A DNA stretch of 64,000 nucleotides, taken from positions 64,001 to 128,000 of the IMG/VR virus record IMGVR_UViG_3300037851_000542; one strand, written 5' to 3'. The notes under the pieces are model-generated. The model did no database searches. It saw nothing but the letters and a program-made list of their open reading frames with translations, and was not told the DNA's origin. Of the stretch, positions 7,529-27,297 are shown in pieces. Position numbers and translations under genes: made by a program. This stretch comes from a virus (Duplodnaviria; Caudoviricetes). Numbering within the stretch: the stretch's first letter is position 1; each line of letters begins with the position of its first letter.

Positions 7529-7555
7529 GTGCTAATTTTGAATTAAATATACTAT

Positions 7556-8230
7556 ATGATTAACATGTCTATATTATTACAAAAAATTATTCAATTATTT
7601 AAAACAGTTTTTAGTATTACCACTGCTGCTGATCAGGAAGATACTGTAGGAACTGAGCAAGTTGGCATAGATATGCAACTAATTTATGCTCAATTTCCTT
7701 ATGCTAAAAAAGAAGATATAGACTTAAACTACCCTCTTTTAGTTAAAGCATTAAATAAACATGGAATTTTTAGTAGAGAAATGCTTATTTATGCGTTAGC
7801 TACTGTATCTGTTGAAGTTCCTAAATTTAAACCAGTAAAAGAAATACCTTCAAAATACTCTACTAAAAATAAACTAAAACCGTATGATTTTTCAGGATAC
7901 GTTGGAAGAATGGGAAATAAGGATCTTGAAATGGCTACAAAATACTCAGGAAAAGGACTTATTCAACTTACCGGCTATAATAACTACTGTGATCTTGATA
8001 AAAAACTTTTATTAAATGGTGAGTTAGTACAAAATCCAGATTTAGCCTTGGACGCTAAAATCTCAGCAGAGGTGTTAGCTATATACTTTAAAGACAGAAT
8101 TGACAGGGTAAAACAGGCGCTAATTAATAAAGATTTTGCTGAGTTAAGAAAAATAGTAAATGGTGGTTTTCACGGTCTTGATAAATTTGTAGCAAAATTT
8201 AAAGAATTAGATCAAGTTTTTCCTAAATAG
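7556..8230 (+). CDS. glycoside hydrolase family 19 endolysin
   Basis: YALATVSVE..., MGN, YSGKGLIQLTG..NY, NPDL, IVNGG..GL motifs of GH19 phage lysins. Start may be the second ATG at 7565. Confidence 0.88.
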   Translation: MINMSILLQKIIQLFKTVFSITTAADQEDTVGTEQVGIDMQLIYAQFPYAKKEDIDLNYPLLVKALNKHGIFSREMLIYALATVSVEVPKFKPVKEIPSKYSTKNKLKPYDFSGYVGRMGNKDLEMATKYSGKGLIQLTGYNNYCDLDKKLLLNGELVQNPDLALDAKISAEVLAIYFKDRIDRVKQALINKDFAELRKIVNGGFHGLDKFVAKFKELDQVFPK

Positions 8231-8277
8231 CCTTTAGTATATCTTTCTAGTTTTAAAAATGCTATCATACTTATATT

Positions 8278-8640
8278 ATGAGCTTTGACCAAATTCCTTA
8301 CAAATTTATTAAAGAATTAAACTCTTTAGAGGATTGTTTTACCAAGCAATGGGTCATTAATTTCTATAACCATATAAAAAAATTAAACCTTTTATGGGTC
8401 TCACCTCATATAACTTTCGACGAGGATAATAATTCTTGTTTAGAATGGTGGTACAATAATAGAAAAGTTACAATATACTTAGAGTTAGAAAATAAACAAA
8501 TTACTGTGTTATTTTATGAAGAACCTGACCAAGATGCTATTTTAAAGTTGGATAAAATTACTGATTTAGTTTTACCTTTAAGCAATTTACAAGAAGTTAC
8601 TAGGATATGGTGTTGGTTTACATGTAAGTATAGGATTTAA
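8278..8640 (+). CDS. hypothetical protein
   Basis: 120 aa ORF; no Shine-Dalgarno; a -10-like hexamer lies immediately upstream. Confidence 0.7.
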   Translation: MSFDQIPYKFIKELNSLEDCFTKQWVINFYNHIKKLNLLWVSPHITFDEDNNSCLEWWYNNRKVTIYLELENKQITVLFYEEPDQDAILKLDKITDLVLPLSNLQEVTRIWCWFTCKYRI

Positions 8641-8651
8641 ATATACTATAT
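8639..8651 (+). promoter_or_regulatory. candidate late-promoter motif AAATATACTATAT
   Basis: The 12-mer AATATACTATAT also occurs at 7546-7557 and on the minus strand at 56928-56939; the core ATACTATA also occurs at 4631 and 11428. Confidence 0.45.
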
Positions 8652-8685
8652 ACTATTAAGTATATAATTATAATGGGGTTTTTAT

Positions 8686-9363
8686 TTGATGTCTGTAGAC
8701 GACCGTGTAAATCTTCAAAAAGCTCTTTACACTATATCACATGAGTTTAAAAATGACATTATAACCCTGCAAGGTTTAATAACTATTCTTGCCCAAAAAT
8801 ATGAAAAAACCTGGGACGAAGACGATAAGGAAAATATAGACTTGTTATTTGAGTCTATTAAACACCAAGAATCATATATTCAAAGTTTGCTAGATTATTC
8901 TAGAGTCAATACTAGAGGCAGACCAAGCTCTATAAAGTCCATACAAGAGCTTATAGCCATAGCGTTAAAGTCTATAAACAACGAACAAGTTAAAATTGAA
9001 TGTAACTGTAATACTAAATTAAAGCTGGACAATGCTCAATTTACAAAAGCTCTAAGTTGTATAATTATTAACTCTATTCAGTACTCTAACTGTAACCCCG
9101 TTATTATTAACTTTAATTGTGATTCTAAAGAAAATGACTATATATTAAAAATTAAAGATAACGGTACTGGTATAGATGATAAGTTTAAAGATCAGATATT
9201 CTCTGTGTTCTCTCCTGGTAAGAATTCGGTATCAGGAATAGGTATGGGACTTGCCACGGTAAAAAAGATAGTAGAGAGGCAAGGAGGTTCTATTTCTTAT
9301 GATTTTAGTACCAAAGAGTTTATAATAATTTTACCAATTGCATTGTGTTACCAAGATGTCTAA
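8686..9363 (+). CDS. sensor-less histidine kinase (HisKA + HATPase_c)
   Basis: H-box SHEFKN, N-box IINSIQYS, G1 KDNGTGI, F-box IFSVF, G2 GIGMGLA. Confidence 0.88.
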   Translation: MMSVDDRVNLQKALYTISHEFKNDIITLQGLITILAQKYEKTWDEDDKENIDLLFESIKHQESYIQSLLDYSRVNTRGRPSSIKSIQELIAIALKSINNEQVKIECNCNTKLKLDNAQFTKALSCIIINSIQYSNCNPVIINFNCDSKENDYILKIKDNGTGIDDKFKDQIFSVFSPGKNSVSGIGMGLATVKKIVERQGGSISYDFSTKEFIIILPIALCYQDV

Positions 9364-9796
9364 TGATTTAATAAATATCTTAATGGTAGAAGACAGCAAA
9401 GCACATGTAAAGCTTACTCAAGAAGCTTTAAAAAGGGCTAAACTTATAGCTAATTTTTACTATGCTAAAGACGGAGAGGAAGCATTAAATTTTATTTATA
9501 AAAAAGGCAATTATTCAAATGCCCCTACACCAAATTTAATACTACTTGATTTAAAGTTACCTAAGTACAGTGGTAAAGAAATATTAAAAATACTAAAAGA
9601 GGATGAAGATTTAAAGTCTATACCTGTAATTATTTTAACTACTTCATCGGCTATACTAGACATAGACGAGTCTTATAAAAGCCACGCTAATAGTTATATT
9701 ATAAAACCTATATCTTTTGAAGGATTGATTCAAACCTTAATGGGTCTAAATAATTTCTGGTTTGTTTTATCTACAAAACCACCAGTTAATGATTAA
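9356..9796 (+). CDS. single-domain response regulator (Rcp1/CheY-like)
   Basis: ILMVEDS, DGEEAL, P.LILLDLKLP (phospho-Asp), IPVIILTTS, ANSYIIKP. Probable ATG at 9356 overlaps the upstream gene. Confidence 0.93.
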   Translation: MSNDLINILMVEDSKAHVKLTQEALKRAKLIANFYYAKDGEEALNFIYKKGNYSNAPTPNLILLDLKLPKYSGKEILKILKEDEDLKSIPVIILTTSSAILDIDESYKSHANSYIIKPISFEGLIQTLMGLNNFWFVLSTKPPVND

Positions 9797-10982
9797 TTAC
9801 ATAATATTTGTATCTTTACTATTATGCTTGCTGTCATACAGGTCAGGTTATAAAAAAGGACTAGACTTAAAAAATAAAACACTAAGTGAGAATCGTCTCT
9901 TAATAGAGGAATTGAATTTTAGGTTAAATTTAATCTTAAATGTTTCTAAAGTAGGTATATGGGTACTAGACATAAAAACCAGAGAATTAAATTGGAACAA
10001 GGAAATGTTTGCAATTTATGAACTAGACCCTAATGAATCCGCTTGTCAAAGTAGATGGTCAGCATCTCTTCTTCCTGATGATTTAGTATTAACATTAGCT
10101 CAGTTAGAAGACAGCATAGCTAATACAAAAGAATTCAATACTTCTTTTAGAATTGTTACAAAAACTGAAGGAATCAGGCATATAAAAGCAATTGGAAATT
10201 TTCTCATAGACGATGATGGACTAGCTTATAAAATGGTAGGTATCAACTACGACAATACAAGTGAAGAAGTATTTAAAAGTAATATTTTATCTTTAAACAG
10301 GGAACTTTTAGATTTTACCTCGATTTTGAGCCACGATCTTCAACAACCTACAACAATAGCTTCTATGTACTTGGATCTTTTGGGCGCTAAAAACCCATAT
10401 TTAGACCCAGACAGTCAGGAGTATTTTAATTATGTTAAAACTTCTTTGAACGAGATAAGTTGCATTTTAAAGGATCTAATAGATCTTATACGTGTAGATA
10501 ACTTAGAAAAAAACCAAGAAGTTAACAAGTCAGAATTATTAAATTTAATAAATTTTAAAGAGATCTTAGAATCTTTAAATTACAACAAGAATTTGATTGA
10601 AATAGTTCTACCCAAAGAAGATTGTTACTTAAGTATGTGCAATAGAGATATTAAATCTCTTTTTACTAACTTAATATCTAACGCTATAAAGTTTTCTGAC
10701 CATAATAGAAAAAACACAATAACAATTACCTCTGATTGTTTAGATAATGGTAAAGTTTTTACAGTATCAGATAAAGGCATAGGTATAGACTCTAGGCATT
10801 TAAATGAGGTAATTAAGCCTTTTTTTAGAGTATACAGTTCTGAGGACTATCCAGGTACAGGGTTAGGTTTAGCTTTATGTGATAAAATAGCAAAAAAATA
10901 CGGAGGTACCTTAAGAATTGAATCTAAATTAGGAGTAGGTACAGATATAATTATAAAATTTCCTTGTCAAGGTACTATATAG
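9789..10982 (+). CDS. membrane-anchored PAS-domain histidine kinase
   Basis: N-terminal TM segment, PAS/PAC (GIWVLDI...PDD...FRIV...GINYD), H-box SHDLQQP, NLISNAIKF, DKGIGI, GTGLGLA. Probable ATG at 9789 overlaps the RR stop. Confidence 0.92.
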   Translation: MINYIIFVSLLLCLLSYRSGYKKGLDLKNKTLSENRLLIEELNFRLNLILNVSKVGIWVLDIKTRELNWNKEMFAIYELDPNESACQSRWSASLLPDDLVLTLAQLEDSIANTKEFNTSFRIVTKTEGIRHIKAIGNFLIDDDGLAYKMVGINYDNTSEEVFKSNILSLNRELLDFTSILSHDLQQPTTIASMYLDLLGAKNPYLDPDSQEYFNYVKTSLNEISCILKDLIDLIRVDNLEKNQEVNKSELLNLINFKEILESLNYNKNLIEIVLPKEDCYLSMCNRDIKSLFTNLISNAIKFSDHNRKNTITITSDCLDNGKVFTVSDKGIGIDSRHLNEVIKPFFRVYSSEDYPGTGLGLALCDKIAKKYGGTLRIESKLGVGTDIIIKFPCQGTI

Positions 10983-10987
10983 AGATA

Positions 10988-11407
10988 ATGCCTAACTCTG
11001 ATTTAAACTCTAAAGATAAGATAGCACTAGCTCGATTAGAAGAGAAGTTTAAAAACCTATCTGAATCTCATAAAGATTTAAAAGAGAGGTATAAACTAAC
11101 TCAAGAAGATCTTATTAAGAAATCAGAAGAAATATCTGAGGCTCATATACAAAATAAACTTTTAGAAAAAGAATTAAAAAGAAATGTAGAGCTGCTGTAC
11201 AAAGATTTTGATGCATTTCTAGATAATATGCAGAAAATAGAGTTAAGTCATAACCTGTTTGAAAAAAAAGTAACAGAAGAACTAAAAACAATAAAAGAAA
11301 AGGGATCTGAAACATTTCTCCTATATGGAAAAATGGCTATGTATTTTATAGGCGGGGTTTTTGCAACAGTGTCTACATTTATAGGTATAGGTATTCTTAA
11401 ATTCTAG
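10988..11407 (+). CDS. coiled-coil protein with C-terminal TM helix (holin/XhlA-like)
   Basis: Long coiled coil plus hydrophobic C-terminus MAMYFIGGVFATVSTFIGIGILKF; lies in the lysis region. Probable start 10988. Confidence 0.55.
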   Translation: MPNSDLNSKDKIALARLEEKFKNLSESHKDLKERYKLTQEDLIKKSEEISEAHIQNKLLEKELKRNVELLYKDFDAFLDNMQKIELSHNLFEKKVTEELKTIKEKGSETFLLYGKMAMYFIGGVFATVSTFIGIGILKF

Positions 11408-11482
11408 AGTGGTTTTGGTGAGATTAAATACTATAGAAACGGTATCTATTCACACTTTTAACCACTTTTAGAGGTCTTTATA

Positions 11483-13519
11483 ATGATTCAATTAAACCCT
11501 GTTTTAACCTCCCAGAATGGAAAGCTTTTAGTTGGGGATACCAATAGTACTGGAAAATTTACAAATTTAAGTTATTCAGAATCAGGTAGTAATTCTAACT
11601 TAATATCTTCTGGAACTTTTTTATTAGGTACCACAGGATCTAATGAGTTCAGAATACAAACTAATGGATCTTTAAAATGGTCTGTTGGGTCAAATGGTGC
11701 GCTTAGTGCTGCGGTCGCTGCCAATATAACGACTGGAGGTAGCGTTCAAAGTCCTACTTTAGAAAACATTGGATTCACAGACTTAAACTTAAACTCTAAT
11801 AATGCTGGTATAAAATTCTATACGTCCAACACTAGCCGTTGGGAAATGAGTAGCGCTGGTAATTTACTCCCTGCTACTTCTGGGACTTTAAATATTGGAT
11901 CTTCGTCTAATCCTATTCAAGTTATTACGGGTAACAATTTAAGTTCTTCTCCAGCACAGCAATTAAATCTTCAAATTGGTGGATCTACAAGGTGGATAGT
12001 AGAACCTAATAGCGGAAATCTTCAGCCCAATGGTGCTAATACTTACGGTATTGGAGGAGGATCAAGACCTTGTAATCAGGTGTGGACAAGAGTACTAACC
12101 TCTGATGCTGGGCAGAATCTAGTTTTAGCTGAAAACGGTGCTGCTAGGTGGACACTAGAGGCAGGTGGAAACAACTTAACTGCTGTCGGAGGGGCTGTAA
12201 TTAAATCTAGCAATAGTAATTTATCTTTACAAGGAAACTACTCATTTGGTTCTACAGGGGCTGCTATAGAACTTTTAAATAATGGACCTTTAAATTTAGT
12301 AGCTCAAGATGTAATCAGCATTTATAATGCGGGCGGGCTTAGATGGACTTTTAATACCTCTGGTGATATTGTACCTGCTAGTGGTTCTCAAAGTATTGGT
12401 ACAAATTCTTCTGCAATACTTTCAACTTATACTAGAAATGTATCCTCCGACGGCACTAATAATTTAAATTTACAAGTAGGAGGGAGCACAAAAGTATACA
12501 TAACTAATGCTGGAGATCTCATTGCAGGTGGAATTAGCACTACTTATTTAAATATAGATAACACTTTAACCTTAAACGATAATAATTTAACCTCAACTGG
12601 AGATTTAATTTTTAATAATGGGCAGTGGTTAAGATTATACGCTAGCGGTACAGAACGCTGGAGAATGTTTGGTAATGGAGAACTTTTAGCAGTACAAGAA
12701 TCTGTGAATCATTTTTTTGGTACTTTTAGCAATACGTCCTTATTCTTTAGAACAAACAATCAAAACAGGCTTTATTTAGAAGCAAACGCTAGTAACTTAG
12801 TAGGGGTAGGTTCTGTAGGTTTAGCTAGTAATGGTGGGGTAGTTACACTAGGATCAACAAATGATGGTAATCAGGATCCAAATAGCGCTACTATTATTAT
12901 AACTGGATTTGGAGGACCTTCTCCTAAAACTTTAGCTAGATTTACAAAAAATTCAATCAATCTTCAATGTCCTGATCGGGCTGGATTTAGCGGAGATCGC
13001 TTTTGGCTTAAAATTTATCACGGTGCTCAAGAGATGTGGGCATTTTATAACGCTATTGATGATTCATTAGCTGATGGAATGTTTGCCCCTCCGGTAACAA
13101 ACGCTTTTAATATTGGTCACCCTTCTCACAGAGTTAGAGATATACATACACAAGCAATAACAATATACTCTGACGAAAGAGGTAAAAATACAATACAACC
13201 TTCTACATTAGGGTTAGACTTTATTAATTCATTAAATCCAGTATCATATAAAATGAATGTTGGTAGGAATCAAACACTTGAAGAAGAAGATGGTACTCCT
13301 ATAATAGTGCCAATATCTGGAGTAAGAACACACTGGGGATTACTAGCCCAAGAAGTTAAAGCTGTAATTCCAAGTGGTGTAGATTTTGCGGGATGGGTAC
13401 TAGCAGATCTTGAAGACCCGGATAGTCAACAGTCTTTACGGTATTATCAATTTATTTGTCCTTTAATTAAAGCAATTCAGGAGCTGACCGCAAGAGTAGA
13501 GTCTTTAGAAAATCCTTAA
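11483..13519 (+). CDS. second tail fibre protein with C-terminal S74 chaperone domain
   Basis: Beta-repeat shaft sharing motifs with fibre 1; YSDERGKNTI...HWGLLAQEV...LRYYQFICPLIKAIQEL; GAGGT RBS. Confidence 0.88.
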   Translation: MIQLNPVLTSQNGKLLVGDTNSTGKFTNLSYSESGSNSNLISSGTFLLGTTGSNEFRIQTNGSLKWSVGSNGALSAAVAANITTGGSVQSPTLENIGFTDLNLNSNNAGIKFYTSNTSRWEMSSAGNLLPATSGTLNIGSSSNPIQVITGNNLSSSPAQQLNLQIGGSTRWIVEPNSGNLQPNGANTYGIGGGSRPCNQVWTRVLTSDAGQNLVLAENGAARWTLEAGGNNLTAVGGAVIKSSNSNLSLQGNYSFGSTGAAIELLNNGPLNLVAQDVISIYNAGGLRWTFNTSGDIVPASGSQSIGTNSSAILSTYTRNVSSDGTNNLNLQVGGSTKVYITNAGDLIAGGISTTYLNIDNTLTLNDNNLTSTGDLIFNNGQWLRLYASGTERWRMFGNGELLAVQESVNHFFGTFSNTSLFFRTNNQNRLYLEANASNLVGVGSVGLASNGGVVTLGSTNDGNQDPNSATIIITGFGGPSPKTLARFTKNSINLQCPDRAGFSGDRFWLKIYHGAQEMWAFYNAIDDSLADGMFAPPVTNAFNIGHPSHRVRDIHTQAITIYSDERGKNTIQPSTLGLDFINSLNPVSYKMNVGRNQTLEEEDGTPIIVPISGVRTHWGLLAQEVKAVIPSGVDFAGWVLADLEDPDSQQSLRYYQFICPLIKAIQELTARVESLENP

Positions 13520-13522
13520 CTT

Positions 13523-13903
13523 TTACCAAATCCCAGTATAGATTATTTTATACTGGGATTTAATAGAAGTTAGTGCAAAAGTTAAAACCTCAAATTCTTC
13601 TGATACAATATCGTCCGGCTCTATTTTAAATTTTGCTTTTACTTTAGTAATTTCAGTTAATCCCTCATCTACTCTACAAAAGCTTTTTAAATCGGAGTAA
13701 TTATTATAGTTATCTGGTATCCACAGTTGACCTTTTACAGTAGATATACCTAACCTTGTATAGCCGCTGTCATTACCTATATCCCACAAGGTTCCATCAA
13801 CTTCAGCATTCCAAGTTAGCACTCTAAATCCTGGAATTGCAGCCTCAGCAAGAGGATTTAAAGGTTTTGCTTTTAAGTTGTTATAAATAAAAAACAGATC
13901 CAT
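13523..13903 (-). CDS. hypothetical protein
   Basis: 126 aa ORF convergent with tail fibre 2. Confidence 0.65.
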   Translation of the reverse strand: MDLFFIYNNLKAKPLNPLAEAAIPGFRVLTWNAEVDGTLWDIGNDSGYTRLGISTVKGQLWIPDNYNNYSDLKSFCRVDEGLTEITKVKAKFKIEPDDIVSEEFEVLTFALTSIKSQYKIIYTGIW

Positions 13904-13906
13904 ATG

Positions 13907-14185
13907 CTATGTCAACATTTCTAGAGCAATACCACATATAACTTTATCCTCTGCATCAAATTTGGTAATTAGTTGCTTATTGTTAGTTAGATAAGCAGAT
14001 ATAAAGTTTATTAAATGATCTAATACTATCCTAGCTAATGCTTTTGTACTGGCTTTTAAATTAGCATTATTACCAAACTCAGAAATCCACAGCAAGACCA
14101 TATCTCGACGGGTTTCGAGTTCCTTTAACTTATCAAATCTAGCGGTCGTTAGAATCAATTCCATACTTATAATATAGTATGCCAT
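13907..14185 (-). CDS. hypothetical protein
   Basis: 92 aa helical ORF in tandem with 13523..13903. Confidence 0.65.
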   Translation of the reverse strand: MAYYIISMELILTTARFDKLKELETRRDMVLLWISEFGNNANLKASTKALARIVLDHLINFISAYLTNNKQLITKFDAEDKVICGIALEMLT

Positions 14186-14216
14186 TTGATTAAATTAATC
14201 TATATAAATTACATAG

Positions 14217-14245
14217 TTGCATTAAAAATAAAAATATGTTAATAT
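14217..14245 (+). promoter_or_regulatory. sigma70-type promoter upstream of the sigma-factor gene
   Basis: TTGCAT (14217-14222), 17-nt spacer, TAATAT (14240-14245). Confidence 0.45.
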
Positions 14246-14287
14246 TATTAAATAGTTATCTATTATAAAAAATAACGAGGAACATGA

Positions 14288-15259
14288 GTGACAAAAGAAT
14301 ACAAATTTAAAAACTACTATGAATCTGAACCTCAAGTAGATAAAATACTTTATGACGAATCTAAAGAAAAAGTATTAAAAGCTTTTGCTAACATTAGTCA
14401 AACCTATGCAAGAAAACACGTTAGACCAGGTATTGACTATGAAGATCTGTATAATGAAGCCCAACTTGGAGTTTTAGAAGCTATTGAGTACTTTTCTGAT
14501 CCAAGTAAGGTAGAAAAAAAATATCCATTCAAGCAATATGTTCTTTACAAAATTAGGGAAAGAACTTATCAGTACTGCTTGCGTAATGCTATAAAAATAA
14601 AAACTCCTTATTATATTCAGCGCGGTTCAAAACATGTAGCTCAGATTACAACTTTATTAAAAAATGCTCCGGTTGCTTTTCAAATTCTTGGTAAAGAGGA
14701 CGTTAGTGATAGTGATATTAGAGAGTTTTTATATAATGAGAATGAAAGGTTACCTTTAAAATCTGATGAGTTTATTCGTGCTCAAATAAATAAAAATCTA
14801 ACTACAGATCAGTTTAATCAGGTTTATGATAACGTAGTAAATCATAAAAGAGGAAGTGCTCATTCTTTTGTAAAGAAAAACTTAACTGATGTTGGTAAAA
14901 TATTACATATAAAAGAAAAGATCTGGTATAATGCTACAAGTAACAATATGCCATTTAGTAGAGTAATATCTTTAATATTAGAGGCTCGTAGTGCCAGATC
15001 CAGCCACGATTCTGTTTTTTGTGGGACTATAAATGGGCTCTCAGAAAAAAATATTATTTTTGCAGAAATGGTAAAACGGGGCAGGGAAGTTTGTGGGACT
15101 AAAAATTTTGATATATTTTTATCAAATAAATACTTAAATAAAACCTATAAAGAAATCTCAGTACTTTATAACGTCCCTAAGAATGATATAACTGAAATTA
15201 TAAAAAGGTGTATAAAAAGTCTAAAAGAAGACGACATAATAAACGAATTTAACGATTAA
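14288..15259 (+). CDS. phage-encoded sigma70-family RNA polymerase sigma factor
   Basis: Region 2: EDLYNEAQLGVLEAIEYF.DP...PFKQYVLYKIR...IKTP; region 4 HTH: NKTYKEISVLYNVPKNDITEIIKRCIKSL; GAGGA RBS with GTG start. Confidence 0.82.
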   Translation: MTKEYKFKNYYESEPQVDKILYDESKEKVLKAFANISQTYARKHVRPGIDYEDLYNEAQLGVLEAIEYFSDPSKVEKKYPFKQYVLYKIRERTYQYCLRNAIKIKTPYYIQRGSKHVAQITTLLKNAPVAFQILGKEDVSDSDIREFLYNENERLPLKSDEFIRAQINKNLTTDQFNQVYDNVVNHKRGSAHSFVKKNLTDVGKILHIKEKIWYNATSNNMPFSRVISLILEARSARSSHDSVFCGTINGLSEKNIIFAEMVKRGREVCGTKNFDIFLSNKYLNKTYKEISVLYNVPKNDITEIIKRCIKSLKEDDIINEFND

Positions 15260-15263
15260 TGCT

Positions 15264-16061: not shown

Positions 16062-16077
16062 AAGCTTTAAACTAAGA

Positions 16078-16974: not shown

Positions 16975-17046
16975 TTTTTAATTACTCCAAAGGTCTGTAT
17001 TTTATATAAGTGTGTTACTGTAGCACATTCTTATTTAAAAATTTAC

Positions 17047-17075
17047 TTGACAATACCTTAACAATAGTATATATT
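17047..17075 (+). promoter_or_regulatory. sigma70 consensus promoter
   Basis: TTGACA (17047-17052), 17-nt spacer, TATATT (17070-17075). Confidence 0.65.
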
Positions 17076-17755: not shown

Positions 17756-18001
17756 ATGGCTAGTAAATTAAAAATATTCACTGTAAAACAACTTGGTCAG
17801 AAGGATGACTATTCAGATCCGAAAAACCCTACAATCATCCCTGCTGAGACGGAAGAAGACCTGATGTTAAAAATTCAAGCAGTTATAGATGACGCTGGTA
17901 TTGCGCCTGGCGCTTTGACTAACTGGAGCATTGTGAAGTTAGAGCGTATTATAAAAGGCTCTGGGGATGCTAGTTATTGGGTAGTAGTTGAGGGCGACTA
18001 A
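17756..18001 (+). CDS. hypothetical protein
   Basis: 81 aa ORF with its own candidate promoter. Confidence 0.7.
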   Translation: MASKLKIFTVKQLGQKDDYSDPKNPTIIPAETEEDLMLKIQAVIDDAGIAPGALTNWSIVKLERIIKGSGDASYWVVVEGD

Positions 18002-18618
18002 CCTTCGGAAGTATTAGCAGCTGCTTCGGACAAAGAGTTAAAATAATCTTGGACTGTAATAATTCTTATAGGATAGGTTATTTTTGACCTTTTTGCCCAG
18101 CTCTTTAGCTTATCCTCGTCCTCAATGCCTTTTTTCGAGCAATTAATCTTTCTACACACAGGTATTAGGGTCGGAGTATTTAAGTCTGAGAGATTATACT
18201 CTAACTGAAAAGCATCGCTAGCCTTGTAATTATGACATTGCAGAGGTATCTTGGAGTAGGCACATCTCCACCCATACCTATCTAAAAGGGTCTCAATATC
18301 AAGATCGTCAAACTCTATACTATTTAGGGTTTTATAGCCCTTTTTTCCAACAGGATGCCTTTTTTCCCCTACCAATAGGTTGAATTTATTCCATTGATCA
18401 TTATATAACCTATGTGTTATTGATAGTCTTCTGTAACATGATCTGCACAACCCTTTAGCCCAGTGAGATTTATTACCTTCTGGGTTCTTAGTCTTACATA
18501 ACTTGCAGCATACGTAGCTGCTTGTATCCCAAGGACCTTTATGGTAAGATGAGCCGTGGAAGTAAACTTCGCCTGGCAGGAATTGCTGTAAACTATTTAA
18601 ATTATCAAAATGTCCCAT
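17998..18618 (-). CDS. Zn-finger plus degenerate HNH-like protein
   Basis: CKLC...GLCRSC zinc finger; RYGWRCAYSKIPL...QLEY...LIPVCRKINCSK resembles HNH folds with the DH replaced by EY. Probable start 18618 (MGHFD); the track gives 18639. Confidence 0.5.
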   Translation of the reverse strand: MGHFDNLNSLQQFLPGEVYFHGSSYHKGPWDTSSYVCCKLCKTKNPEGNKSHWAKGLCRSCYRRLSITHRLYNDQWNKFNLLVGEKRHPVGKKGYKTLNSIEFDDLDIETLLDRYGWRCAYSKIPLQCHNYKASDAFQLEYNLSDLNTPTLIPVCRKINCSKKGIEDEDKLKSWAKRSKITYPIRIITVQDYFNSLSEAAANTSEG

Positions 18619-18633
18619 ACTCAAAATATAGTA

Positions 18634-19760: not shown

Positions 19761-19805
19761 TAAAAACATTATCAGAATCAAACAGCGGGTTTTGAGCTTA
19801 ATTTT

Positions 19806-20639
19806 ATGAATAATTATAAACTAAAGCCCTTCTTTAAATGTCCTGGTGGTAAAACTAAATTGCTAGCAGAGCTGCACAGTAATTTGCCCAAAGACTACCA
19901 AGATCATAAATATGTTGAATTATTCCTTGGAGGTGGGGCTTTATTTTTAAGCCTTTTACAAAGCGAGATGTCAGAATTTTATATAAATGATTATAATTTT
20001 GATACTTTTAACTTATGGAGTACTTTAATAAATGATCCTAGTAAACTTAACTATACAGAAGAACAGGATTATTATAAAAACAGATTAAAATTAAATACAG
20101 TCACCTTGTCGCCAGAGGAAAGAGCAAGTACCTTTTTATATTTAAATAAAAATTGCTTTAACGGTCTTATAAGGTATAACTCCTCTGGAAAATTTAATTC
20201 CCCAGCAGGTAAGTACGCCCGAATTCAAATGCCTAATATGCAACTTATTAACGATTTGAGCCAAGCTATCAACTCTAAATTAGTCCATTTATCAAACTCG
20301 GACTTTAAGGGATATTTTGATACACATTTTAGTTCTAAATCTTGCTTAAACGGGTGGTTTTTTTACTTTGACCCTCCTTATATTCCTATTTCTTCTACTT
20401 CTAATTTTACCGATTATACTCAACAAGGATTTAATATAGAAGGTCAACTTAAACTTGTAGAATGTATGAATAAAATTAATGAACTAGGAGGTAAGTTCTT
20501 ATTATCTAACTCATCTTCCCCTATTGCTTTAGACCTGTATAAAGATTACAATATAGTTAATATAAAAGCCTTAAGAACTATAAACAGTAAGGTTCAGAAT
20601 AGAGGACCTATATTAGAAATTTTAGTAAAAAATTATTAA
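19806..20639 (+). CDS. dam: Dam-family DNA adenine methyltransferase
   Basis: KPFFKCPGGK, YVELFLGGGALF (motif I), YLNKNCFNGL.RYN..G.FN.P.G, FYFDPPY (motif IV). Confidence 0.92.
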   Translation: MNNYKLKPFFKCPGGKTKLLAELHSNLPKDYQDHKYVELFLGGGALFLSLLQSEMSEFYINDYNFDTFNLWSTLINDPSKLNYTEEQDYYKNRLKLNTVTLSPEERASTFLYLNKNCFNGLIRYNSSGKFNSPAGKYARIQMPNMQLINDLSQAINSKLVHLSNSDFKGYFDTHFSSKSCLNGWFFYFDPPYIPISSTSNFTDYTQQGFNIEGQLKLVECMNKINELGGKFLLSNSSSPIALDLYKDYNIVNIKALRTINSKVQNRGPILEILVKNY

Positions 20640-20657
20640 AGGGGAAGAAAACTAAAA

Positions 20658-20855
20658 ATGTTATCAGAGTTTATAAACTACATCTTATCTTTGATTTCTA
20701 GTGTTTCGGGTGAAAATTTACAGAATTTAGCCCTGCTGGTACTGGCTATATCTGTCTGGATTTTAGCACTGCGAGTAAAAGCTATAAGTAAATTAAATGG
20801 TATACGGGATCTTTTGGCTGCGAAGAAGTTAAACCGTAAAAACAAAAAACAATAG
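20658..20855 (+). CDS. small membrane protein
   Basis: 65 aa with a hydrophobic segment and a basic C-terminus. Confidence 0.6.
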   Translation: MLSEFINYILSLISSVSGENLQNLALLVLAISVWILALRVKAISKLNGIRDLLAAKKLNRKNKKQ

Positions 20856-22240
20856 TGACTAAGTGTAGTAATAATATTCTAGGAAAAGTTGGATTTAGTA
20901 TAACTCAGCAAACTATAAAAGAACTGTGTTATAACCTATCAGCTTATTCTGTAATTAATCTATACCCCAGTGTTGTATTAGGTTACAATGGATCTTACTG
21001 GTCTAAAGAATTTTATAATGAACTTATTAGGCAATTTACTGAGCTTAATATTGATTTAGTATTAATCGACCGCCCGACTACCTTGTATGAGACCTGTTGG
21101 CTCTCTAAAGAGTTAAAAACGCAACCACTGGTTGTTTATCTTACTGAGACAATGCAAGGTCCAGAATACATAAGTATCTCTCTTTTTAAAAGAGATTTAG
21201 AACCTTTAACTACTGATGAGTTAAAAGATTTAAAACTTGAATCTAACAGTACCTCTAAAGGTAACATAGATACGGTAAATATAAAGGGCTTAGTTAAATA
21301 CCTACAGGACTCTAAAGTTTCAGATTTAAGCGGGCTGTCCGAATTTAAACTGTATATCGACTCTATGTTTGGTGCAGGTGAGTACATCTTTAGGGACTTA
21401 AATCAGCAGAAGCTTATAGATGTTTCTTTCTTTAACCCTCAATCTTCACCTACAAGAATAGTAAATTATACCTCTAACCCTACTGGACAATTTCTTAGCA
21501 ATTACGCAAAGGTATGTTTAAATCCTGACTTTAAGACTTTATTTTTTGGTCTAGGTCCTGATGGCGAGAAAATAGGTCTTTATGACTTAAAACAAGATAC
21601 CGAAATTAGCTCTTCTAGTGTTATAGCGTTACTGGCATATTATTATGCTAAAATACGTAAAAAAAAGGGAACTGTTATTCTAACACCTCTTACTGGAAGT
21701 AAAACTTTAGAAGTCATAAACAAATTAGATTTAAGTTATGAAATCGTTGATTGTGGGGCTCAGGCTTTTTATGAAAGCATACATAAAAAACGAAGAAGAC
21801 CTGCATTATTTTATGCGAATGAGTATGGTAATATATGGTTTAAAGGGGATATAAATGCTTGTAATAATGTATTAGCTGTATTGGCTATAACTAATTTATG
21901 TAAAGAAATGTCCAGGTCCCCCGGAGAAATATTAGATATAATTCATACTTCGTTTTTACAAAATAATTATTTACATTTTAATTATGCTGTTATCAAAGAT
22001 GTAATAAGTGTAGAAGAATTTGAATTTATAATGAAAGATTATATAAATGATAAGAAAAATTATAATAATAGTTCCGTATACTTATTAAATAACTCATCTA
22101 GGCTTGCACTAAAAGATAATTTAAATTATAATAGATTAGAGATAAGTGTAGAATCCACTAATCAAGAAGATTTAAAGAATATTGCTATATTTTTACAAGA
22201 GGAAATAGGTAAAAAATGTTTAGAGGTATATGCTCCTTAG
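20855..22240 (+). CDS. alpha-D-phosphohexomutase (PMM/PGM)-like protein with degenerate active site
   Basis: 461 aa with collinear degenerate motifs: VVLGYN, LTETMQGPEY (for TASHNP), LGPDGEK (for DxDxDR), DCGAQAF (for VGFK), ANEYG (for GEESG). Confidence 0.7.
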   Translation: MTKCSNNILGKVGFSITQQTIKELCYNLSAYSVINLYPSVVLGYNGSYWSKEFYNELIRQFTELNIDLVLIDRPTTLYETCWLSKELKTQPLVVYLTETMQGPEYISISLFKRDLEPLTTDELKDLKLESNSTSKGNIDTVNIKGLVKYLQDSKVSDLSGLSEFKLYIDSMFGAGEYIFRDLNQQKLIDVSFFNPQSSPTRIVNYTSNPTGQFLSNYAKVCLNPDFKTLFFGLGPDGEKIGLYDLKQDTEISSSSVIALLAYYYAKIRKKKGTVILTPLTGSKTLEVINKLDLSYEIVDCGAQAFYESIHKKRRRPALFYANEYGNIWFKGDINACNNVLAVLAITNLCKEMSRSPGEILDIIHTSFLQNNYLHFNYAVIKDVISVEEFEFIMKDYINDKKNYNNSSVYLLNNSSRLALKDNLNYNRLEISVESTNQEDLKNIAIFLQEEIGKKCLEVYAP

Positions 22241-22713
22241 TATTGTTATTACTTACTTTCACTCCTACTGCCGATACGGAATGTAGAGAGAATTATAACA
22301 TAAAGGAGCATTTTAGAGGATCCCAATTATTTATAGCATCATCTGTTGATACTTTACCTTCTGCTACAGATATTACTTGTATATTGTTAGAAACTATCAG
22401 CCTTAAGTCTAAAAATCTCCCTACGGATTTTATTATAGCAATCTCTGATTTAAATAATATAGGTGGGGCTATTTTGAGAGTCTCTGTAAAAGATAATCTT
22501 TTTATATTAATGGATTTTGCTAAATCTGATAGTAATAATTATACAATTACAGCTATTACATATCCAGACCCTTTAAAGAGGATTCAAGAGGTATTAAGTA
22601 AAAAAAGATTACCTACTACTTCCGATTTAACTACTTATGAGCTTTTAAAGTATAAAGCTTTAAAGTCTTCAATTACAAGTACTGAGCTACTAGAGGTAAT
22701 AGGAAAACAATGA
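22216..22713 (+). CDS. hypothetical protein, possibly exported
   Basis: 165 aa with a hydrophobic N-terminus (ICSLVLLLLTFTPTA). Confidence 0.65.
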   Translation: MFRGICSLVLLLLTFTPTADTECRENYNIKEHFRGSQLFIASSVDTLPSATDITCILLETISLKSKNLPTDFIIAISDLNNIGGAILRVSVKDNLFILMDFAKSDSNNYTITAITYPDPLKRIQEVLSKKRLPTTSDLTTYELLKYKALKSSITSTELLEVIGKQ

Positions 22714-23387
22714 TAAAATATAATTCCGATAACGAAGTTTTAGAAGCTTTAAAAAAAGAATTTAGTAGAGACTCCGAAAAGGTTTTATCTATTGGGTATG
22801 GCAAAGGTAAGAAAGATTTAGTTTACTTGTCCGTTGAAAGTGTAAGAGCACGTTTAGATGACGTTCTTGGTTTAAACTGGAATTGGGAAACTATTGAAAC
22901 TGTTTATTCTCAGTTTATAAAAGCCCCATCTAAACAGAAGCTGGACGACGGTTCCTACGGTGTTCCTGCCGGAGCAGGTCCTGTCTCGATACCTACAGTA
23001 TCTGTTACAGGCAGACTCACCTTACACTTACCTTCAGGGATTGCTGTATTTAGAGACGGTAACGGTGGAAGCTCTTTAGACAAAGGTACTGGACCTGGTG
23101 ACCCTGAGAAAATTGCAGCTAGTGATGCTTTTAAGAGAGCTGCCTGGTTTTTTGGTATAGGGGCATACTTAAGAAACGGTACTGCTTCTATAGATAATAC
23201 TTCAGTTATGGACTCAAGCAGACAGGGTTTTATTCCTCAGGTGCCAAACCAGCAGCAGCAGAATTGGAACCGAAATACAACAGTAGGAGGAGTTGTTCCC
23301 CACAATAACACTTTTACTGGACCTACGAATCATCAACAAGAACCTATAATTCACCAGACAGGTGGGTTAAAACCGGGCAGACCATAA
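22710..23387 (+). CDS. Rad52/Rad22-family single-strand annealing protein (Sak-like)
   Basis: YLSVESVRARLDDVLGLNWNWE...VTGRLTL...DG.G...EKIAASDAFKRAAWFFGIGAYL, plus a disordered Gln-rich tail. Confidence 0.88.
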   Translation: MIKYNSDNEVLEALKKEFSRDSEKVLSIGYGKGKKDLVYLSVESVRARLDDVLGLNWNWETIETVYSQFIKAPSKQKLDDGSYGVPAGAGPVSIPTVSVTGRLTLHLPSGIAVFRDGNGGSSLDKGTGPGDPEKIAASDAFKRAAWFFGIGAYLRNGTASIDNTSVMDSSRQGFIPQVPNQQQQNWNRNTTVGGVVPHNNTFTGPTNHQQEPIIHQTGGLKPGRP

Positions 23388-25228
23388 TGGAAATAAAACC
23401 TGTTTATATTAAAGATCTTTATAGTAAGATAAATATAATTGTTTTAAATAAAAGAGAAAGCGTAAATGAGTTAAAAAAGGTTAGTGTAAAGATAACAGAA
23501 GAGGACTACAAGCTGTGGGTATTAAATACCTGTGTTATAGGTATAAATAATATATCCTCTTATTTAAAGGACGGGACTGCTTCTTTAATATCCCAACTAC
23601 AGGAAGCTAATGAGGATATTTATAAAAGAGTAATAGCACTAAATGAATTTTTAGATCCTAAAAACTTGTTTATTAGCAACAAACGTGAACTTACGCACAA
23701 CAATACCAAACACCTTTTAACAAAGACTAAAAACTGGTCAAAAGAAGGTACATATAAAGAGATAACTACTGTAGATTTTCAGAACTTTTTAGATATATGC
23801 TCTGCATCTAGTTTGATGGAGTACACTCAAGTACCTGAAACCTTTAAAGATTTAAATTTAATTGTAAATATAAGATCTTTTTCTGAGAATGATCTCACTG
23901 CTCTTGTAAACTTAATGGATCTGGAAACAGACAGTCATTTAAAGTACTCAGTACTAGCAGAATGTATAGATAACTTCTCAGAAATTATTACGTTAATTAT
24001 AGACGAGGTAAATAAAAGTAGACTGGATATGGTTAAAACTGTATCCAGTCTTTACAGTTTATGCATCAAGCATAACTCTTTTCTTTATTTAAATTTAAAT
24101 GAAGCAAAGTATTTAAAGAAAGAACAGATAACTTCGTCATTTTCACAGACTAGTTCTGCTTTTAATAGCTTGTTTGAAAAATTAGAAGCTGACGAAGAAG
24201 AGGAAGAATTAAAAACTAAACCACTTAAAAGTGTACCACTAGCGCAGGTAACTGAACTAGAAGATAAACTAAAAAGTAGCATTTATGGGCAGGATGATGC
24301 AATTAAAGCTATTTACAATTCCGTAAAGCGTGCGCATATGGGTTTAAAACCTCAAAACAGACCTATAGCTGCGTTTTTATTCTATGGTCCTACTTCTACT
24401 GGTAAAACGGAGCTAGCTAAGGTTCTAGCCGAGTGTTTAAGGGGTTCTGCGTCAGAAGGTCTTGTAAAAATACCTTGTGGTACTGTCTTGAATGAATCTC
24501 ATACTATACAAACTTTAATTGGTGCGCCCCCTAGCTACGTAGGGCACGAATCTAAAAGTCTATTTGGAGCGCATTTTTCTAAGGATCCTAATTTAAAAAT
24601 TATATTATTTGATGAGATAGACAAAGCACATCCTAAAGTTTTTGATTTCTTGTTAGAAGCAATGGATGAAGGTAATATGATGGATAGTAAAGGTAACTGT
24701 TTAAACTTAAGAGATTCCATATTAATCTTTACTTGTAATACTGGACAAAAAGAGGCTATAAAAGCATCTAAAGCCGCAGGTTTTACATTAAATACTAGCA
24801 ATGAGAGCCATCAACATACAGTAGAAGAAATATATAAAACCACTATAGACAATAAATTAGTAGCTGAATTTAGAGCTAGACTTAACGGGCAATTCTTCTT
24901 CCGGAGGTTAAGTGAGAGTGAACTAATACTCACAGGTAAAAAATACCTTAATGACTTTTTTAAGGTCTGGGAAAAAGAAAATAAATCTATAGTGAATGTT
25001 TCTGAAGAAGTTTATAACTTTATGCTAAAAAAATGTATAAGCAGTCAGAAAGATTGTCACGCTAGACATTTAAATCACTTTATTGACGATCAGATTATAG
25101 ATAAGTTAGGAGATTTGCTAATAGATAAAAATATTACCCCATCTTCTATAAAGTCAATAGACATTACTATAGAAAATGATTTAATTGACTTTCATATAAT
25201 AGAAAAAAAGAAAAAGCTAAAAAAGTAG
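23387..25228 (+). CDS. ClpA/ClpB-like AAA+ ATPase with only the D2 module
   Basis: IYGQDDAI, RPIAAFLFYGPTSTGKTELAK, LIGAPPSYVG, IILFDEIDKAHP, DEG...D.KG, FRARL; about 270 aa of unrelated N-terminus. Confidence 0.88.
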   Translation: MEIKPVYIKDLYSKINIIVLNKRESVNELKKVSVKITEEDYKLWVLNTCVIGINNISSYLKDGTASLISQLQEANEDIYKRVIALNEFLDPKNLFISNKRELTHNNTKHLLTKTKNWSKEGTYKEITTVDFQNFLDICSASSLMEYTQVPETFKDLNLIVNIRSFSENDLTALVNLMDLETDSHLKYSVLAECIDNFSEIITLIIDEVNKSRLDMVKTVSSLYSLCIKHNSFLYLNLNEAKYLKKEQITSSFSQTSSAFNSLFEKLEADEEEEELKTKPLKSVPLAQVTELEDKLKSSIYGQDDAIKAIYNSVKRAHMGLKPQNRPIAAFLFYGPTSTGKTELAKVLAECLRGSASEGLVKIPCGTVLNESHTIQTLIGAPPSYVGHESKSLFGAHFSKDPNLKIILFDEIDKAHPKVFDFLLEAMDEGNMMDSKGNCLNLRDSILIFTCNTGQKEAIKASKAAGFTLNTSNESHQHTVEEIYKTTIDNKLVAEFRARLNGQFFFRRLSESELILTGKKYLNDFFKVWEKENKSIVNVSEEVYNFMLKKCISSQKDCHARHLNHFIDDQIIDKLGDLLIDKNITPSSIKSIDITIENDLIDFHIIEKKKKLKK

Positions 25229-25564
25229 TCAGTGTTTTCTAGTTCTAAGTCTTCTTTTCCTCTGTCCTAAAGCTATAACTGAAGTTGAGTTATCTGTTTT
25301 TCTAGTCTTTAAAACAGACTTAACTCCTTGAAAAAATCTGCAATAAGGTATATCTAAGTGCTCACATATGCTTCTGTAAGCATACAGATAACTATCGTTA
25401 TCACTTTCAAACCAACCTTTAGCCTCCTCGTGTCTTGTAATATCTTCGGATAAAAAATCATTAACTGCCGAAATTAAAACGTGCTGCATCAAGTCCTTTT
25501 CGTGGTAAGCAGGATCTGTTACATCAAGAAAGTCAGCATCTAATACTGGTCTATTTTGAGACAT
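25229..25564 (-). CDS. hypothetical protein
   Basis: 111 aa ORF with an Arg-rich C-terminus. Confidence 0.7.
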   Translation of the reverse strand: MSQNRPVLDADFLDVTDPAYHEKDLMQHVLISAVNDFLSEDITRHEEAKGWFESDNDSYLYAYRSICEHLDIPYCRFFQGVKSVLKTRKTDNSTSVIALGQRKRRLRTRKH

Positions 25565-25773
25565 TACTTGTCTCCGAGTTTATTAAAGTAATCTTTAATT
25601 ACAACTCCGCTTGAAGTTTCTTTCTTTAAAACCAAGTCTCCATTATAGACGTAAAACTCCCATCCATCGTTAAACAACTCATCTAGCGTCTGCTCTTGTG
25701 CAGGCTTAAATATAAGACTACAAGATGATAAAAATAAAGTTATAAGTACGAATATTAGTTTATTGATCTGCAT
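25564..25773 (-). CDS. small lipoprotein
   Basis: MQINKLIFVLITLFLSSC lipobox; probable start 25773. Confidence 0.65.
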   Translation of the reverse strand: MQINKLIFVLITLFLSSCSLIFKPAQEQTLDELFNDGWEFYVYNGDLVLKKETSSGVVIKDYFNKLGDK

Positions 25774-26083
25774 TGGTCCTCTTTCCAAATATAACTGTAG
25801 AACACTCTATAACTAGCTCGTCGTCTGTTTTGCTCCTGACTGTTCCTACGAAAATTCCAGGTTCTAGTGATCTTTGTTTAAGAACATTAACCTTATCTTG
25901 CTCATAAACATTTAACTTGGCTTTAATTTTAAAATTAAGTTCTACTTCTACTTTACCAGGTGTATCATTTATAAACTTGGTAATCATACCGTATATTGGA
26001 TACGACTTGCCTACCTCTACCTCGCCCTCTTGAACTTCTAGTCCAAACTTTTCAAAAAAGTTCTCTGCTTTGCTATCTTCCAT
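25760..26083 (-). CDS. hypothetical protein
   Basis: 107 aa ORF with a strong AGGAG RBS. Confidence 0.8.
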   Translation of the reverse strand: MEDSKAENFFEKFGLEVQEGEVEVGKSYPIYGMITKFINDTPGKVEVELNFKIKAKLNVYEQDKVNVLKQRSLEPGIFVGTVRSKTDDELVIECSTVIFGKRTNADQ

Positions 26084-26116
26084 TTATCTCCTGAAGTTAT
26101 TAAAAGTTTACTCACA

Positions 26117-26130
26117 ATTGTATATCGGCA
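26117..26130 (-). promoter_or_regulatory. candidate promoter motif TGCCG-ATA-TACAAT
   Basis: 34 nt upstream of the ATG at 26083; same pattern as 2653-2666 and 18625-18638. Confidence 0.4.
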
Positions 26131-26246
26131 AGGTAGGTTCAATACTTTAGTAGTTATTTGAATAAAATTAAAGCTTGAAGTCTTTAAACAGATATAGTAA
26201 CATTATATCATTAAATTTAATATAATATCTATAGATTTTTTACAGT

Positions 26247-26909
26247 ATGAAAGTTTTAGCACTAAGTGATACTCACGAAAAAGAACATCTGTTACTTAAC
26301 GATCCTATATATTTAGATTATTATGATCTAGTACTTGTTGGAGGGGATGTTACAGGAGACGGGTGCCTATTTAAATATGAGCAGTTCCTAAAGTGGTTAA
26401 ATACTATCTGTGCTACCCATAAAATAATTATAGCGGGTAACCACGATTTTCAATTTTACCTACCTTCTAAAAGAAAGGAAGCATTAGAATTAACAAAACA
26501 ATATAACTGCATTTATCTTGAAGATCAATTAATTGAAATTGATGGTAAAAGAATATATGGATTCCCTTGGACTCCTGTATTTTTTAACTGGGCTTTTATG
26601 TTAGAGAGAAAAGGGGAACAAATGCAAAGAAATGTTAATTTTATACCAGAAAACTTAGATATATTACTAACACACGGTCCTTGTTATAGCATACTAGACT
26701 CTAATAAAGCGGGGCACCTTTGTGGTTGTGAAACTTTAAAAGAGCGTGTAGAACTGATAAAGCCTAAATATCATCTTTTTGGGCACATACATAGTTATAA
26801 TAAGGAGGTCCCAAGAGAGTATATAACTGCCTCTACTACTTATTATAACATCTCTATATGTGATGAGAGAAATAAGCCAATAAGCCAGCCTAGGGTTTTT
26901 GATATCTAG
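26247..26909 (+). CDS. calcineurin-like metallophosphoesterase (MPPED-like)
   Basis: LSDTH, GGDVT, IAGNHD, LLTHGP, FGHIH motifs. Confidence 0.9.
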   Translation: MKVLALSDTHEKEHLLLNDPIYLDYYDLVLVGGDVTGDGCLFKYEQFLKWLNTICATHKIIIAGNHDFQFYLPSKRKEALELTKQYNCIYLEDQLIEIDGKRIYGFPWTPVFFNWAFMLERKGEQMQRNVNFIPENLDILLTHGPCYSILDSNKAGHLCGCETLKERVELIKPKYHLFGHIHSYNKEVPREYITASTTYYNISICDERNKPISQPRVFDI

Positions 26910-26937
26910 AAATACCCTTCTATACTATTTACTTGGT

Positions 26938-27297
26938 ATGGAAGATAAATTGTACTTTTACAAAGCTTTTTGCTATAACTGTGTAGACGGCGACACTATA
27001 GATGTTAATATAGACCTAGGTTTTAATTTATCTAGTCAAAATACAAGAATTCGGCTTCTACACATTAATACACCAGAAAAGAATAGAAAATCAAGTAAAA
27101 AAGCAGGGTTAGAAGCAAAGGCTTTTTTAGAAGAACAAATTTTAAATAAAGAAATATATGTACACTCCACAAAGTGGGACCACTTTGGTAGAGTGTTAGC
27201 AGACGTTTGGACTTTAGAAGGTCAAAGTATAAACACCCTATTAATAGAAAAGGGTTATGCTGTTGCGTTGGACCCTAATGATAAGAAATCCAAGTAA
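26938..27297 (+). CDS. thermonuclease (SNase-like)
   Basis: VDGDTIDV..DLGF, IRLLHINTPE, DHFGRVLAD, INTLLIEKGYA. Probable ATG at 26938. Confidence 0.88.
   Translation: MEDKLYFYKAFCYNCVDGDTIDVNIDLGFNLSSQNTRIRLLHINTPEKNRKSSKKAGLEAKAFLEEQILNKEIYVHSTKWDHFGRVLADVWTLEGQSINTLLIEKGYAVALDPNDKKSK

Follow-up and report, generated by a model that had tools for sequence, protein, structure and literature searches.

The window analysed here is a stretch of 64,000 nucleotides (nt), bases 64001-128000 of the 259,994-bp IMG/VR virus record IMGVR_UViG_3300037851_000542, which represents a phage of the Caudoviricetes with a G+C content of 33% from freshwater metagenomes. It encodes a ribosomal protein uS2, an endolysin, a staphylococcal-nuclease-like protein (SNase) and a sigma-like protein, and several of its genes open exactly 9 nt behind the hexamer TACTAT (TACTAT-N9-ATG). 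A preliminary description of this DNA had proposed that genes with a -10-like hexamer (TAnnnT) close to the ATG and no Shine-Dalgarno (SD) site are leaderless or nearly so, and that the phage uS2 could bias ribosomes towards them. We examined start contexts over the whole record, in which 331 genes were called by a crude codon-usage caller made for this analysis, and found that the TACTAT-N9-ATG class comprises about ten genes, ~3% of those of the phage.

Genes that open 9 nt behind a TACTAT box

Members of the class, their boxes and the open reading frames (ORFs) behind them are listed below; protein lengths are in amino acids (aa).

7550..7555, + strand: TACTAT box, within TATACTATA, 9 nt before ATG 7565 in the divergent gap between the SSB and lysin genes
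7565..8230, + strand: GH19-like endolysin, 221 aa, class member and first gene of its unit; weak match to Pfam Glyco_hydro_19
10973..10978, + strand: TACTAT box, 9 nt before ATG 10988; N9 contains the stop codon of a PAS histidine kinase gene (10980-10982)
10988..11407, + strand: ORF 10988, 139 aa, no family found; class member, operon-internal
14174..14179, - strand: TACTAT box, 9 nt before ATG 14164, in the gap between this gene and the divergent sigma-like gene
13907..14164, - strand: ORF 14164, 85 aa, no family found; class member and first gene of its unit
18628..18633, - strand: TACTAT box, 9 nt before ATG 18618
17998..18618, - strand: ORF 18618, 206 aa, class member; no match in Pfam, NCBIfam or PHROG
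26923..26928, + strand: TACTAT box, within TATACTAT, 9 nt before ATG 26938 and 14 nt past the stop codon of a metallophosphatase gene
26938..27297, + strand: SNase, 119 aa, class member; Pfam SNase 4.8e-15
Genome positions 137255, 139329, 166122 and 239176, outside the window: starts of further TACTAT-N9-ATG genes
Genome 239176-240312 (L010:77-1213), + strand: full-length TnpB, 378 aa, the member that starts at 239176

What sets these genes apart is the exact register between box and start codon. When all hexamers were scanned at each offset (0-30) upstream of 410 candidate start ATGs, the combination of TACTAT and offset 9 ranked first among ~127,000 hexamer-by-offset tests, ahead of every SD-type word, with 9 occurrences observed and 0.37 expected (P = 2.4e-10; ~3e-5 after Bonferroni correction). 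Genome-wide there are 15 instances of TACTAT-N9-ATG as compared with 4.7 on average for each of the 30 remaining offsets, and 9 of them open long ORFs (at least 60 codons) as compared with a mean of 0.6 per other offset. Shifted registers of TACTAT relative to ATG hold 0-1 sites each. The start codon at this distance is always ATG, and GTG, TTG and CTG open no long ORF there. The box occupies positions -15 to -10 of the start codon, which is where an SD would lie, so that there is no room for one, and an SD core is absent from N9 in 9 of 10 members. The tenth site, at genome 18425, has AGGAG inside N9 together with a promoter of the sigma-28-like type described below, and its match to the motif is probably coincidental. 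A pyrimidine occupies -1 in 12 of 13 sites and forms a Y-1/R+1 pair with the A of the ATG. When 12 sites are aligned, TACTAT and ATG are the only invariant positions; therefore these sites are not duplicated DNA.

Independent gene calls and homologues agree with the starts that the motif indicates. A public gene call (P0123) begins at lysin start 7565, and a 59%-identical orthologue (P0124) aligns with the lysin from Met1. For SNase, the public call P0138 and a 66%-identical orthologue, P0139, are both 119 aa long. The protein of ORF 18618 belongs to a real small family with five representatives, whose N-termini are co-linear with start 18618 from residue 15-16. In-frame starts are also available upstream, at ATG 7556 for the lysin, ATG 18639 for ORF 18618 and TTG 26899 for SNase. 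The first and the last are ruled out by the public calls and the orthologue N-termini, and ATG 18639 is ruled out by the co-linear homologues; ATG 14185, a candidate start of ORF 14164, was rejected on the motif alone. On the other side of the lysin gap, the SSB gene (ORF 6983-7528, - strand) has its real start at ATG 7465 (or 7456), where the N-terminus begins MGNMNFVILSGRIGKDP, and not at TTG 7528, with which the ORF opens. With this start, the spacer between the divergent SSB and lysin genes measures ~90-100 nt instead of 27 nt. The whole genome shows a second position-specific start context, in which 2-3 nt separate ATAAGGTAAA from the ATG (AGGTAA at offset 3, TAAGGT at offset 5). At least 5-7 genes use this SD variant, whose spacer is unusually short.

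The narrow motif behaves differently from the generic one. SD use is real in this phage but is confined to a minority of genes: an SD core (AGGA, GGAG, GAGG or AAGG at a spacer of 3-13) precedes 37% of the 331 called starts as compared with ~16% of internal ATGs, the 4-mers with the strongest enrichment before starts are AGGA and GGAG, and G peaks at -12 to -8. The earlier remark that many other genes carry clear SD sites is thus accurate. Generic TAnnnT hexamers, on the other hand, carry no signal before SD-less ATGs, since they are found at spacer 5-12 in 40% of cases as compared with 37% at spacer 13-20 and 32% at spacer 21-28, with no positional peak; their presence close to an ATG is a matter of chance. 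Intergenic DNA shows no enrichment of TATAAT (134 observed, 142 expected), and sigma-70-like -35/-10 pairs in 7001-27000 number 82 as compared with 83 +/- 9.7 in shuffled sequences, without notable enrichment between genes. The lack of an SD does not imply the lack of a leader either: 122 of the 210 SD-less first starts (58%) lie at most 30 nt behind a same-strand gene, and most SD-less genes, being operon-internal on polycistronic RNA, are therefore leadered. The notion of a leaderless-type gene class gains support from TACTAT-N9-ATG, whereas the combination of a missing SD and any TAnnnT, by which the preliminary description had recognized it, has no discriminating power.

The four sites named in that description had been located correctly in both coordinates and spacings. 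These are TATACT 7548-7553 with 11 nt to ATG 7565 (lysin), TATACT 26921-26926 with 11 nt to ATG 26938 (SNase), TATCAT 8263 and CATACT 8266, the latter 6 nt from ATG 8278, and, on the minus strand, TATATT with 6 nt to ATG 18618. Three of the genes, those of the lysin, SNase and ORF 18618, fall into the TACTAT-N9-ATG class; the TATACT is the region of the TACTAT box read 2 nt leftward, and the TATATT overlaps the 3' half of TACTAT. The fourth, ORF 8278 (8278..8640, + strand, 120 aa), stays outside: it has neither an SD nor TACTAT-N9, follows the lysin gene by 47 nt and is absent from a relative of the phage. The label 'HNH-like', previously given to 17998-18618, has to be dropped in view of the lack of a family match noted above.

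One alternative is that nothing special happens at any of these starts: the hexamers would be there by chance, and the genes would be translated from normal messages, polycistronic or with a leader, on which initiation in AU-rich RNA needs no SD. This does hold for generic TAnnnT, for the sigma-70-like pairs and for the gene at 8278, and it agrees with the operon-internal position of most SD-less genes and with the structure of 5' coding regions, where the folding of the first 30-45 nt shows no difference between the class and all genes (P = 0.28 and 0.88), a comparison that is in itself uninformative. It does not account for a spike of P ~2e-10 (~3e-5 after correction) at a single offset, nor for a spacing that is kept in two of two orthologues despite a diverged N9 (see below), and for the class itself we consider it highly improbable.

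TACTAT upstream of other genes and the main promoter class

The box is not restricted to the 9-nt register. An unbiased word search returned ATACTAT as the top word in upstream regions without a sigma-28-like promoter, where it occurs in 24 of 107 regions as compared with 4.3 expected (P = 4e-11). Of 24 intergenic copies of TATACTAT, 19 point to the following gene and 5 do not. Distances between TACTAT and the start codon are concentrated in the range of 25-48 nt, and the interval usually contains an SD; boxes ahead of SD-led starts range from 25 to 140 nt. We found no enrichment of a TTGACA-like -35 partner at any spacing of 8-30 upstream of TACTAT, and a sigma-70-type -35 element, 16-18 nt from the -10, does not accompany the boxes. 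Units preceded by a TATACTAT/TRTACTAT box in the window are the three of a tail-fibre-like gene at 4682 (44 nt), of the lysin and of a weakly tail-like gene at 16974 (- strand, 89 nt). A PHROG search with ten genes behind TRTACTAT boxes elsewhere in the genome put a name to PhoH only, so that the box is at most a candidate mark of structural late genes.

The features that bear on these two promoter-like classes are as follows.

4630..4637, + strand: TATACTAT box, 44 nt from the start of the tail-fibre-like gene (4682-6943); leader of the ordinary kind
14288..15259, + strand: gene of a sigma-like protein with regions 2 and 4, no subfamily assignable; the sole sigma-like protein of the phage
26123..26149, - strand: sigma-28-like promoter, 39 nt before ATG 26083, with a GGAG SD
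37955-37981, - strand: sigma-28-like promoter, another such site in the window

The main promoter class is sigma-28-like and has the form TAAA-N17-CCGATA with invariant spacing, at 41 sites genome-wide; GCCGATA occurs 25 times in intergenic DNA as compared with ~1 expected. From the end of CCGATA to the start codon there are 22-52 nt in 33 of the 41 sites, and a GGAG-type SD is present in 25 of these 33 (76%). Therefore, promoter-proximal genes of the main class have ordinary leaders. In several of these promoters TACTAT lies 2-3 nt after CCGATA or overlaps it (CCGATACTAT), and the two may be tandem promoters. The sigma-like protein is a candidate reader of one of the two classes. No phage RNA polymerase, T7-like or multisubunit, is recognisable in the genome.

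A perfect 11-bp inverted repeat, TATACTATAGG-N8-CCTATAGTATA, spans 4630-4659 between genes 4364-4585 and 4682, and could represent either a hairpin or a pair of TATACTAT boxes in opposite orientation. Between divergent genes at genome 141653/141690 there is a similar pair. Such inverted pairs of TATACTAT at two loci (window 4630/4659 and genome 141653/141690) would suit an operator that overlaps the gene start, has no bearing on leader length and is bound by a regulatory protein of the phage, for example an activator or repressor of late genes. The exactness of the hexamer, which shows no enrichment of one-mismatch variants, is likewise more reminiscent of a protein site than of a -10 element. 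However, most sites are single and oriented (19:5), and an operator gives no reason for the 9-nt phasing, the restriction to ATG or the pyrimidine at -1. We therefore regard an operator as quite improbable.

Phage uS2, a related phage and neighbouring genes

Upstream of the tail-fibre-like gene lies the unit that encodes uS2.

3226-3231, + strand: TACTAT box, 35 nt upstream of a 33-aa ORF of the uS2 unit
3368..4297, + strand: phage uS2, 309 aa; full-length match to Ribosomal_S2 (PF00318), 174 bits, profile positions 1-216 of 216

The best matches of the phage uS2 among solved structures have E = 2.5e-32. In E. coli uS2, a stacking contact of Phe32 is essential for the binding of S1, zinc is held by His18, Asp188, Asp204 and Asp205, and Arg208, Asp188 and Asp205 form salt bridges to S1 (PMC4288201); the S1-S2 interface has also been described in PMC3296737. 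The phage protein carries the changes H15F, H18T, F32L, D204T, D205S and R208S and keeps Asp188, so that the bS1-docking determinants Phe32, three of the four zinc ligands and Arg208 are lost. It also has an 11-aa basic insert after position 32, at the platform face. These changes are confined to the phage clade P0001-P0003, and the nearest cellular uS2 proteins have the canonical residues. GenBank phage matches with ~30% identity look like host rpsB in poorly curated records and were not used. Neither a bS1 nor a bS21 gene is encoded by the phage. The uS2 gene overlaps a conserved hydrophobic ORF of 33 aa (3267-3368, + strand) by TAATG, and its translation thus appears to be coupled to that of a small membrane-like peptide; the same overlap is found in a relative whose uS2 is 63% identical (33-aa ORF at L003 2403-2501). 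A TACTAT box precedes the uS2 unit in the relative too, and the uS2 unit, lying behind such a box, may therefore share a temporal class with the box genes.

The basic insert and the constant distance to the start codon both raise the question of whether TACTAT-N9-AUG acts on RNA, either as a fixed-distance SD substitute read by a phage factor or a remodelled platform, or as a trimming site for an endoribonuclease. A fixed distance to the start codon is typical of ribosome-binding signals, the box sits at -15 to -10, and in the 6 of 10 members located directly behind a same-strand gene it is certainly present on read-through RNA. Against such a role, the box is also found ahead of SD-led starts at distances of 25-140 nt and with a bias in orientation, which suits a transcription signal but not a start-codon signal. 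The distance between an SD and its start codon usually varies, whereas that of TACTAT does not vary by a single base, and the pyrimidine at -1 agrees with the choice of a transcription start site. Moreover, UACUAU has no complement in the canonical 3' tail of 16S rRNA, a tail that may not be the host's. We find an RNA signal rather unlikely, although it is the main rival of the reading favoured below.

Conservation was assessed in one relative, present as short fragmented contigs in run SRR20069374, which is 63% identical to the phage in uS2, 59% in the lysin and 66% in SNase. Its lysin gene has TACTAT at L002 2070-2075 and ATG at 2085, which is the same 9-nt spacing, while 5 of 9 positions of N9 differ from those of the phage and the rest of the spacer is unalignable. 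A MAFFT alignment of the SSB-lysin spacers misplaced the box, and the spacing was read straight from the sequences. The SNase gene of the relative shows the same spacing (TACTAT at L006 1106-1111, ATG 1121); it heads a divergent unit behind a 196-nt spacer and therefore needs its own promoter. The exact 9-nt spacing is thus kept in both orthologues although N9 and flanks have diverged, and orthologue protein alignments as well as public gene calls start at the N9 ATG. The relative has both the remodelled uS2 and TACTAT-N9-ATG sites. Scans of viral contigs with uS2, the lysin and the lysin alignment found no further relatives, and one metagenome scan returned only a 30%-identical GH19 protein. 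Among the sequencing runs listed as containing positions 6900-9400 of the window there are two freshwater DNA runs, both of which may be the source sample, and no RNA runs.

Several neighbouring genes were also noted. A two-component cassette at 8686-10982 (+ strand) consists of a histidine kinase, a response-regulator receiver and a PAS histidine kinase; tandem TATACTATATACTAT lies immediately 5' of it at 8642-8656, and its first histidine kinase also follows the lysin gene in the relative (L002 2758-3453). A TnpB (IS605 OrfB) gene is split into an N-terminal ORF of 148 aa and a C-terminal ORF of 158 aa (RuvC and zinc ribbon), ~150 nt apart.

18652-19128 and 19276-19722, - strand: split halves of TnpB, IS605 OrfB

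Rfam gave no hits in the window and no omega-RNA family. A search for TnpB in genome contigs, aimed at host assignment, found no match. A LAGLIDADG-like or helix-turn-helix endonuclease-like gene (27255-28043, - strand) converges on SNase, with 3' ends that overlap by 43 nt. The whole record has no tRNA genes, and PHROG returned no match for most of its large proteins, including a 2411-aa protein at 56694-63929.

Leaderless messages as the favoured reading

The reading that we favour, with a probability of roughly 0.55, is that the TACTAT-N9-ATG class represents about ten leaderless or near-leaderless late genes. (TA)TACTAT(A) would serve as a phage-specific -10-type promoter element without a -35 partner, placed 25-48 nt before an SD-led start in most units and exactly 9 nt before ATG in ~10 genes. 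RNA polymerase starting 7-10 nt after the box would make the A of the ATG, or a base 1-3 nt upstream of it, the first of the message, and the resulting leaderless or near-leaderless messages would be translated without an SD. Late in infection, ribosomes that carry the phage uS2, and hence lack bS1, would favour these messages. We infer the promoter function of the box, the position of the transcription start and the preference of bS1-free ribosomes from sequence. A -10-type box in fixed register, an obligatory ATG, no room for an SD and a Y/R junction are together the signature of leaderless genes. Transcription by the bacterial polymerase usually begins 7-9 nt downstream of the -10 hexamer, as known from E. 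coli. Even a start directly after the box, with a leader of 9 nt, would still be leaderless under the operational cut-off of a 5' untranslated region (UTR) shorter than 10 nt (PMC8244752). With respect to uS2, ribosomes of E. coli deficient in this protein translate the leaderless lambda cI message better (PMC10491246), and a possible link between the phage uS2 and the class is plausible, and coherent because the phage protein has lost its bS1-docking residues.

Several observations weigh against leaderless expression or against the role of uS2 in it. The start site is deduced only from the 9-nt distance to a -10-type box, and the A of the ATG, at position 10, is at the far edge of the usual E. 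coli sigma-70 range, so that leaders of 1-3 nt are as likely as none. The location of TACTAT 2-3 nt after CCGATA in some promoters would imply a start just past the box and a 9-nt leader. Six of the ten members lie only 5-33 nt behind a same-strand gene, and read-through transcripts therefore carry them too. One-mismatch variants of TACTAT at offset 9 are not enriched, and the hexamer is not enough by itself to define a promoter, as 291 copies of it lie within genes. No TACTAT box precedes the gene of a 56%-identical homologue of the ORF 18618 protein on a seemingly unrelated short contig (L012), the only homologous contig with upstream sequence. Leaders are expected for ~97% of the phage genes, and 58% of those without an SD are operon-internal; SD-less leadered genes are those that depend most on bS1 in Gram-negative bacteria, and the phage would seemingly suffer if all ribosomes became bS1-free. 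The lysin, nuclease and TnpB, three of the named products, are enzymes that could do harm in excess, so that weak leaderless translation would make sense without a special ribosome. A two-part switch, in which late uS2 enters the host 30S subunit and bS1-free ribosomes then select ~10 leaderless messages including those of the lysis enzyme and nucleases, strikes us as unlikely, including its variant in which the basic arm of uS2 reads UACUAU at -15 to -10 in place of an SD.

Leaderless messages are well known from lambda cI, transcribed from PRM, and from many genes of Actinobacteria and Deinococcus (PMC8244752 ref. 32). The phage class resembles these in its -10-type box in register, the requirement for ATG, the lack of an SD and the pyrimidine at -1. 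It differs from them in that the box is always TACTAT and its gap 9 nt, as compared with TAnnnT and a gap of ~6-7 nt, in being phage-specific without a -35, in its small size (~3% of genes) within an otherwise leader-using phage, and in its start sites, which are predicted.

T4-type late promoters provide another parallel, as they consist of a -10-only box of 8 bp, TATAAATA, used by the host core polymerase together with a phage sigma-like factor. The similarity includes a short AT-rich box without a -35 (TATACTAT as compared with TATAAATA), its location before lysis and tail-fibre-like genes, and a phage without its own polymerase. Unlike in T4, the only sigma-like gene of this phage has regions 2 and 4; no relatives of gp55, gp33 or the clamp loader were identified in the phage, with no search aimed at gp33 or gp45 relatives. 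We know of no fixed zero-length leader in T4 late messages.

On the side of the ribosome, the phage uS2, without Phe32, three zinc ligands and Arg208, recalls the uS2/bS1-depleted ribosomes of E. coli; unlike in those, uS2 would be present yet is predicted to be unable to bind bS1. The ribosomal proteins bS21 and bL12 are known to be encoded by phages (PMC6375957, PMC9723584), and the term uS2 is absent from the main text of PMC6375957. As in those cases, an exchangeable small-subunit protein is found in a large phage and is proposed to bias initiation towards phage messages; in contrast to the candidate box here, no matching cis-signal in phage genes has been described for them. Of the two jumbo phages with mapped 5' ends considered here, phiKZ has no leaderless transcripts and AR9 has UTRs of 26-491 nt, so that a leaderless class, if true, would be unusual for such phages.

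Independently of uS2, TACTAT-N9-ATG corrects five start codons in the window and would define a second promoter class. To our knowledge, no one has shown which messages are served by ribosomal proteins encoded by phages. What this genome offers is a concrete pairing of a uS2 without its bS1-docking face and a small set of genes with predicted bS1-independent messages. With cis and trans parts thus defined, the idea of ribosomes specialised for viral mRNAs becomes testable with reporters.

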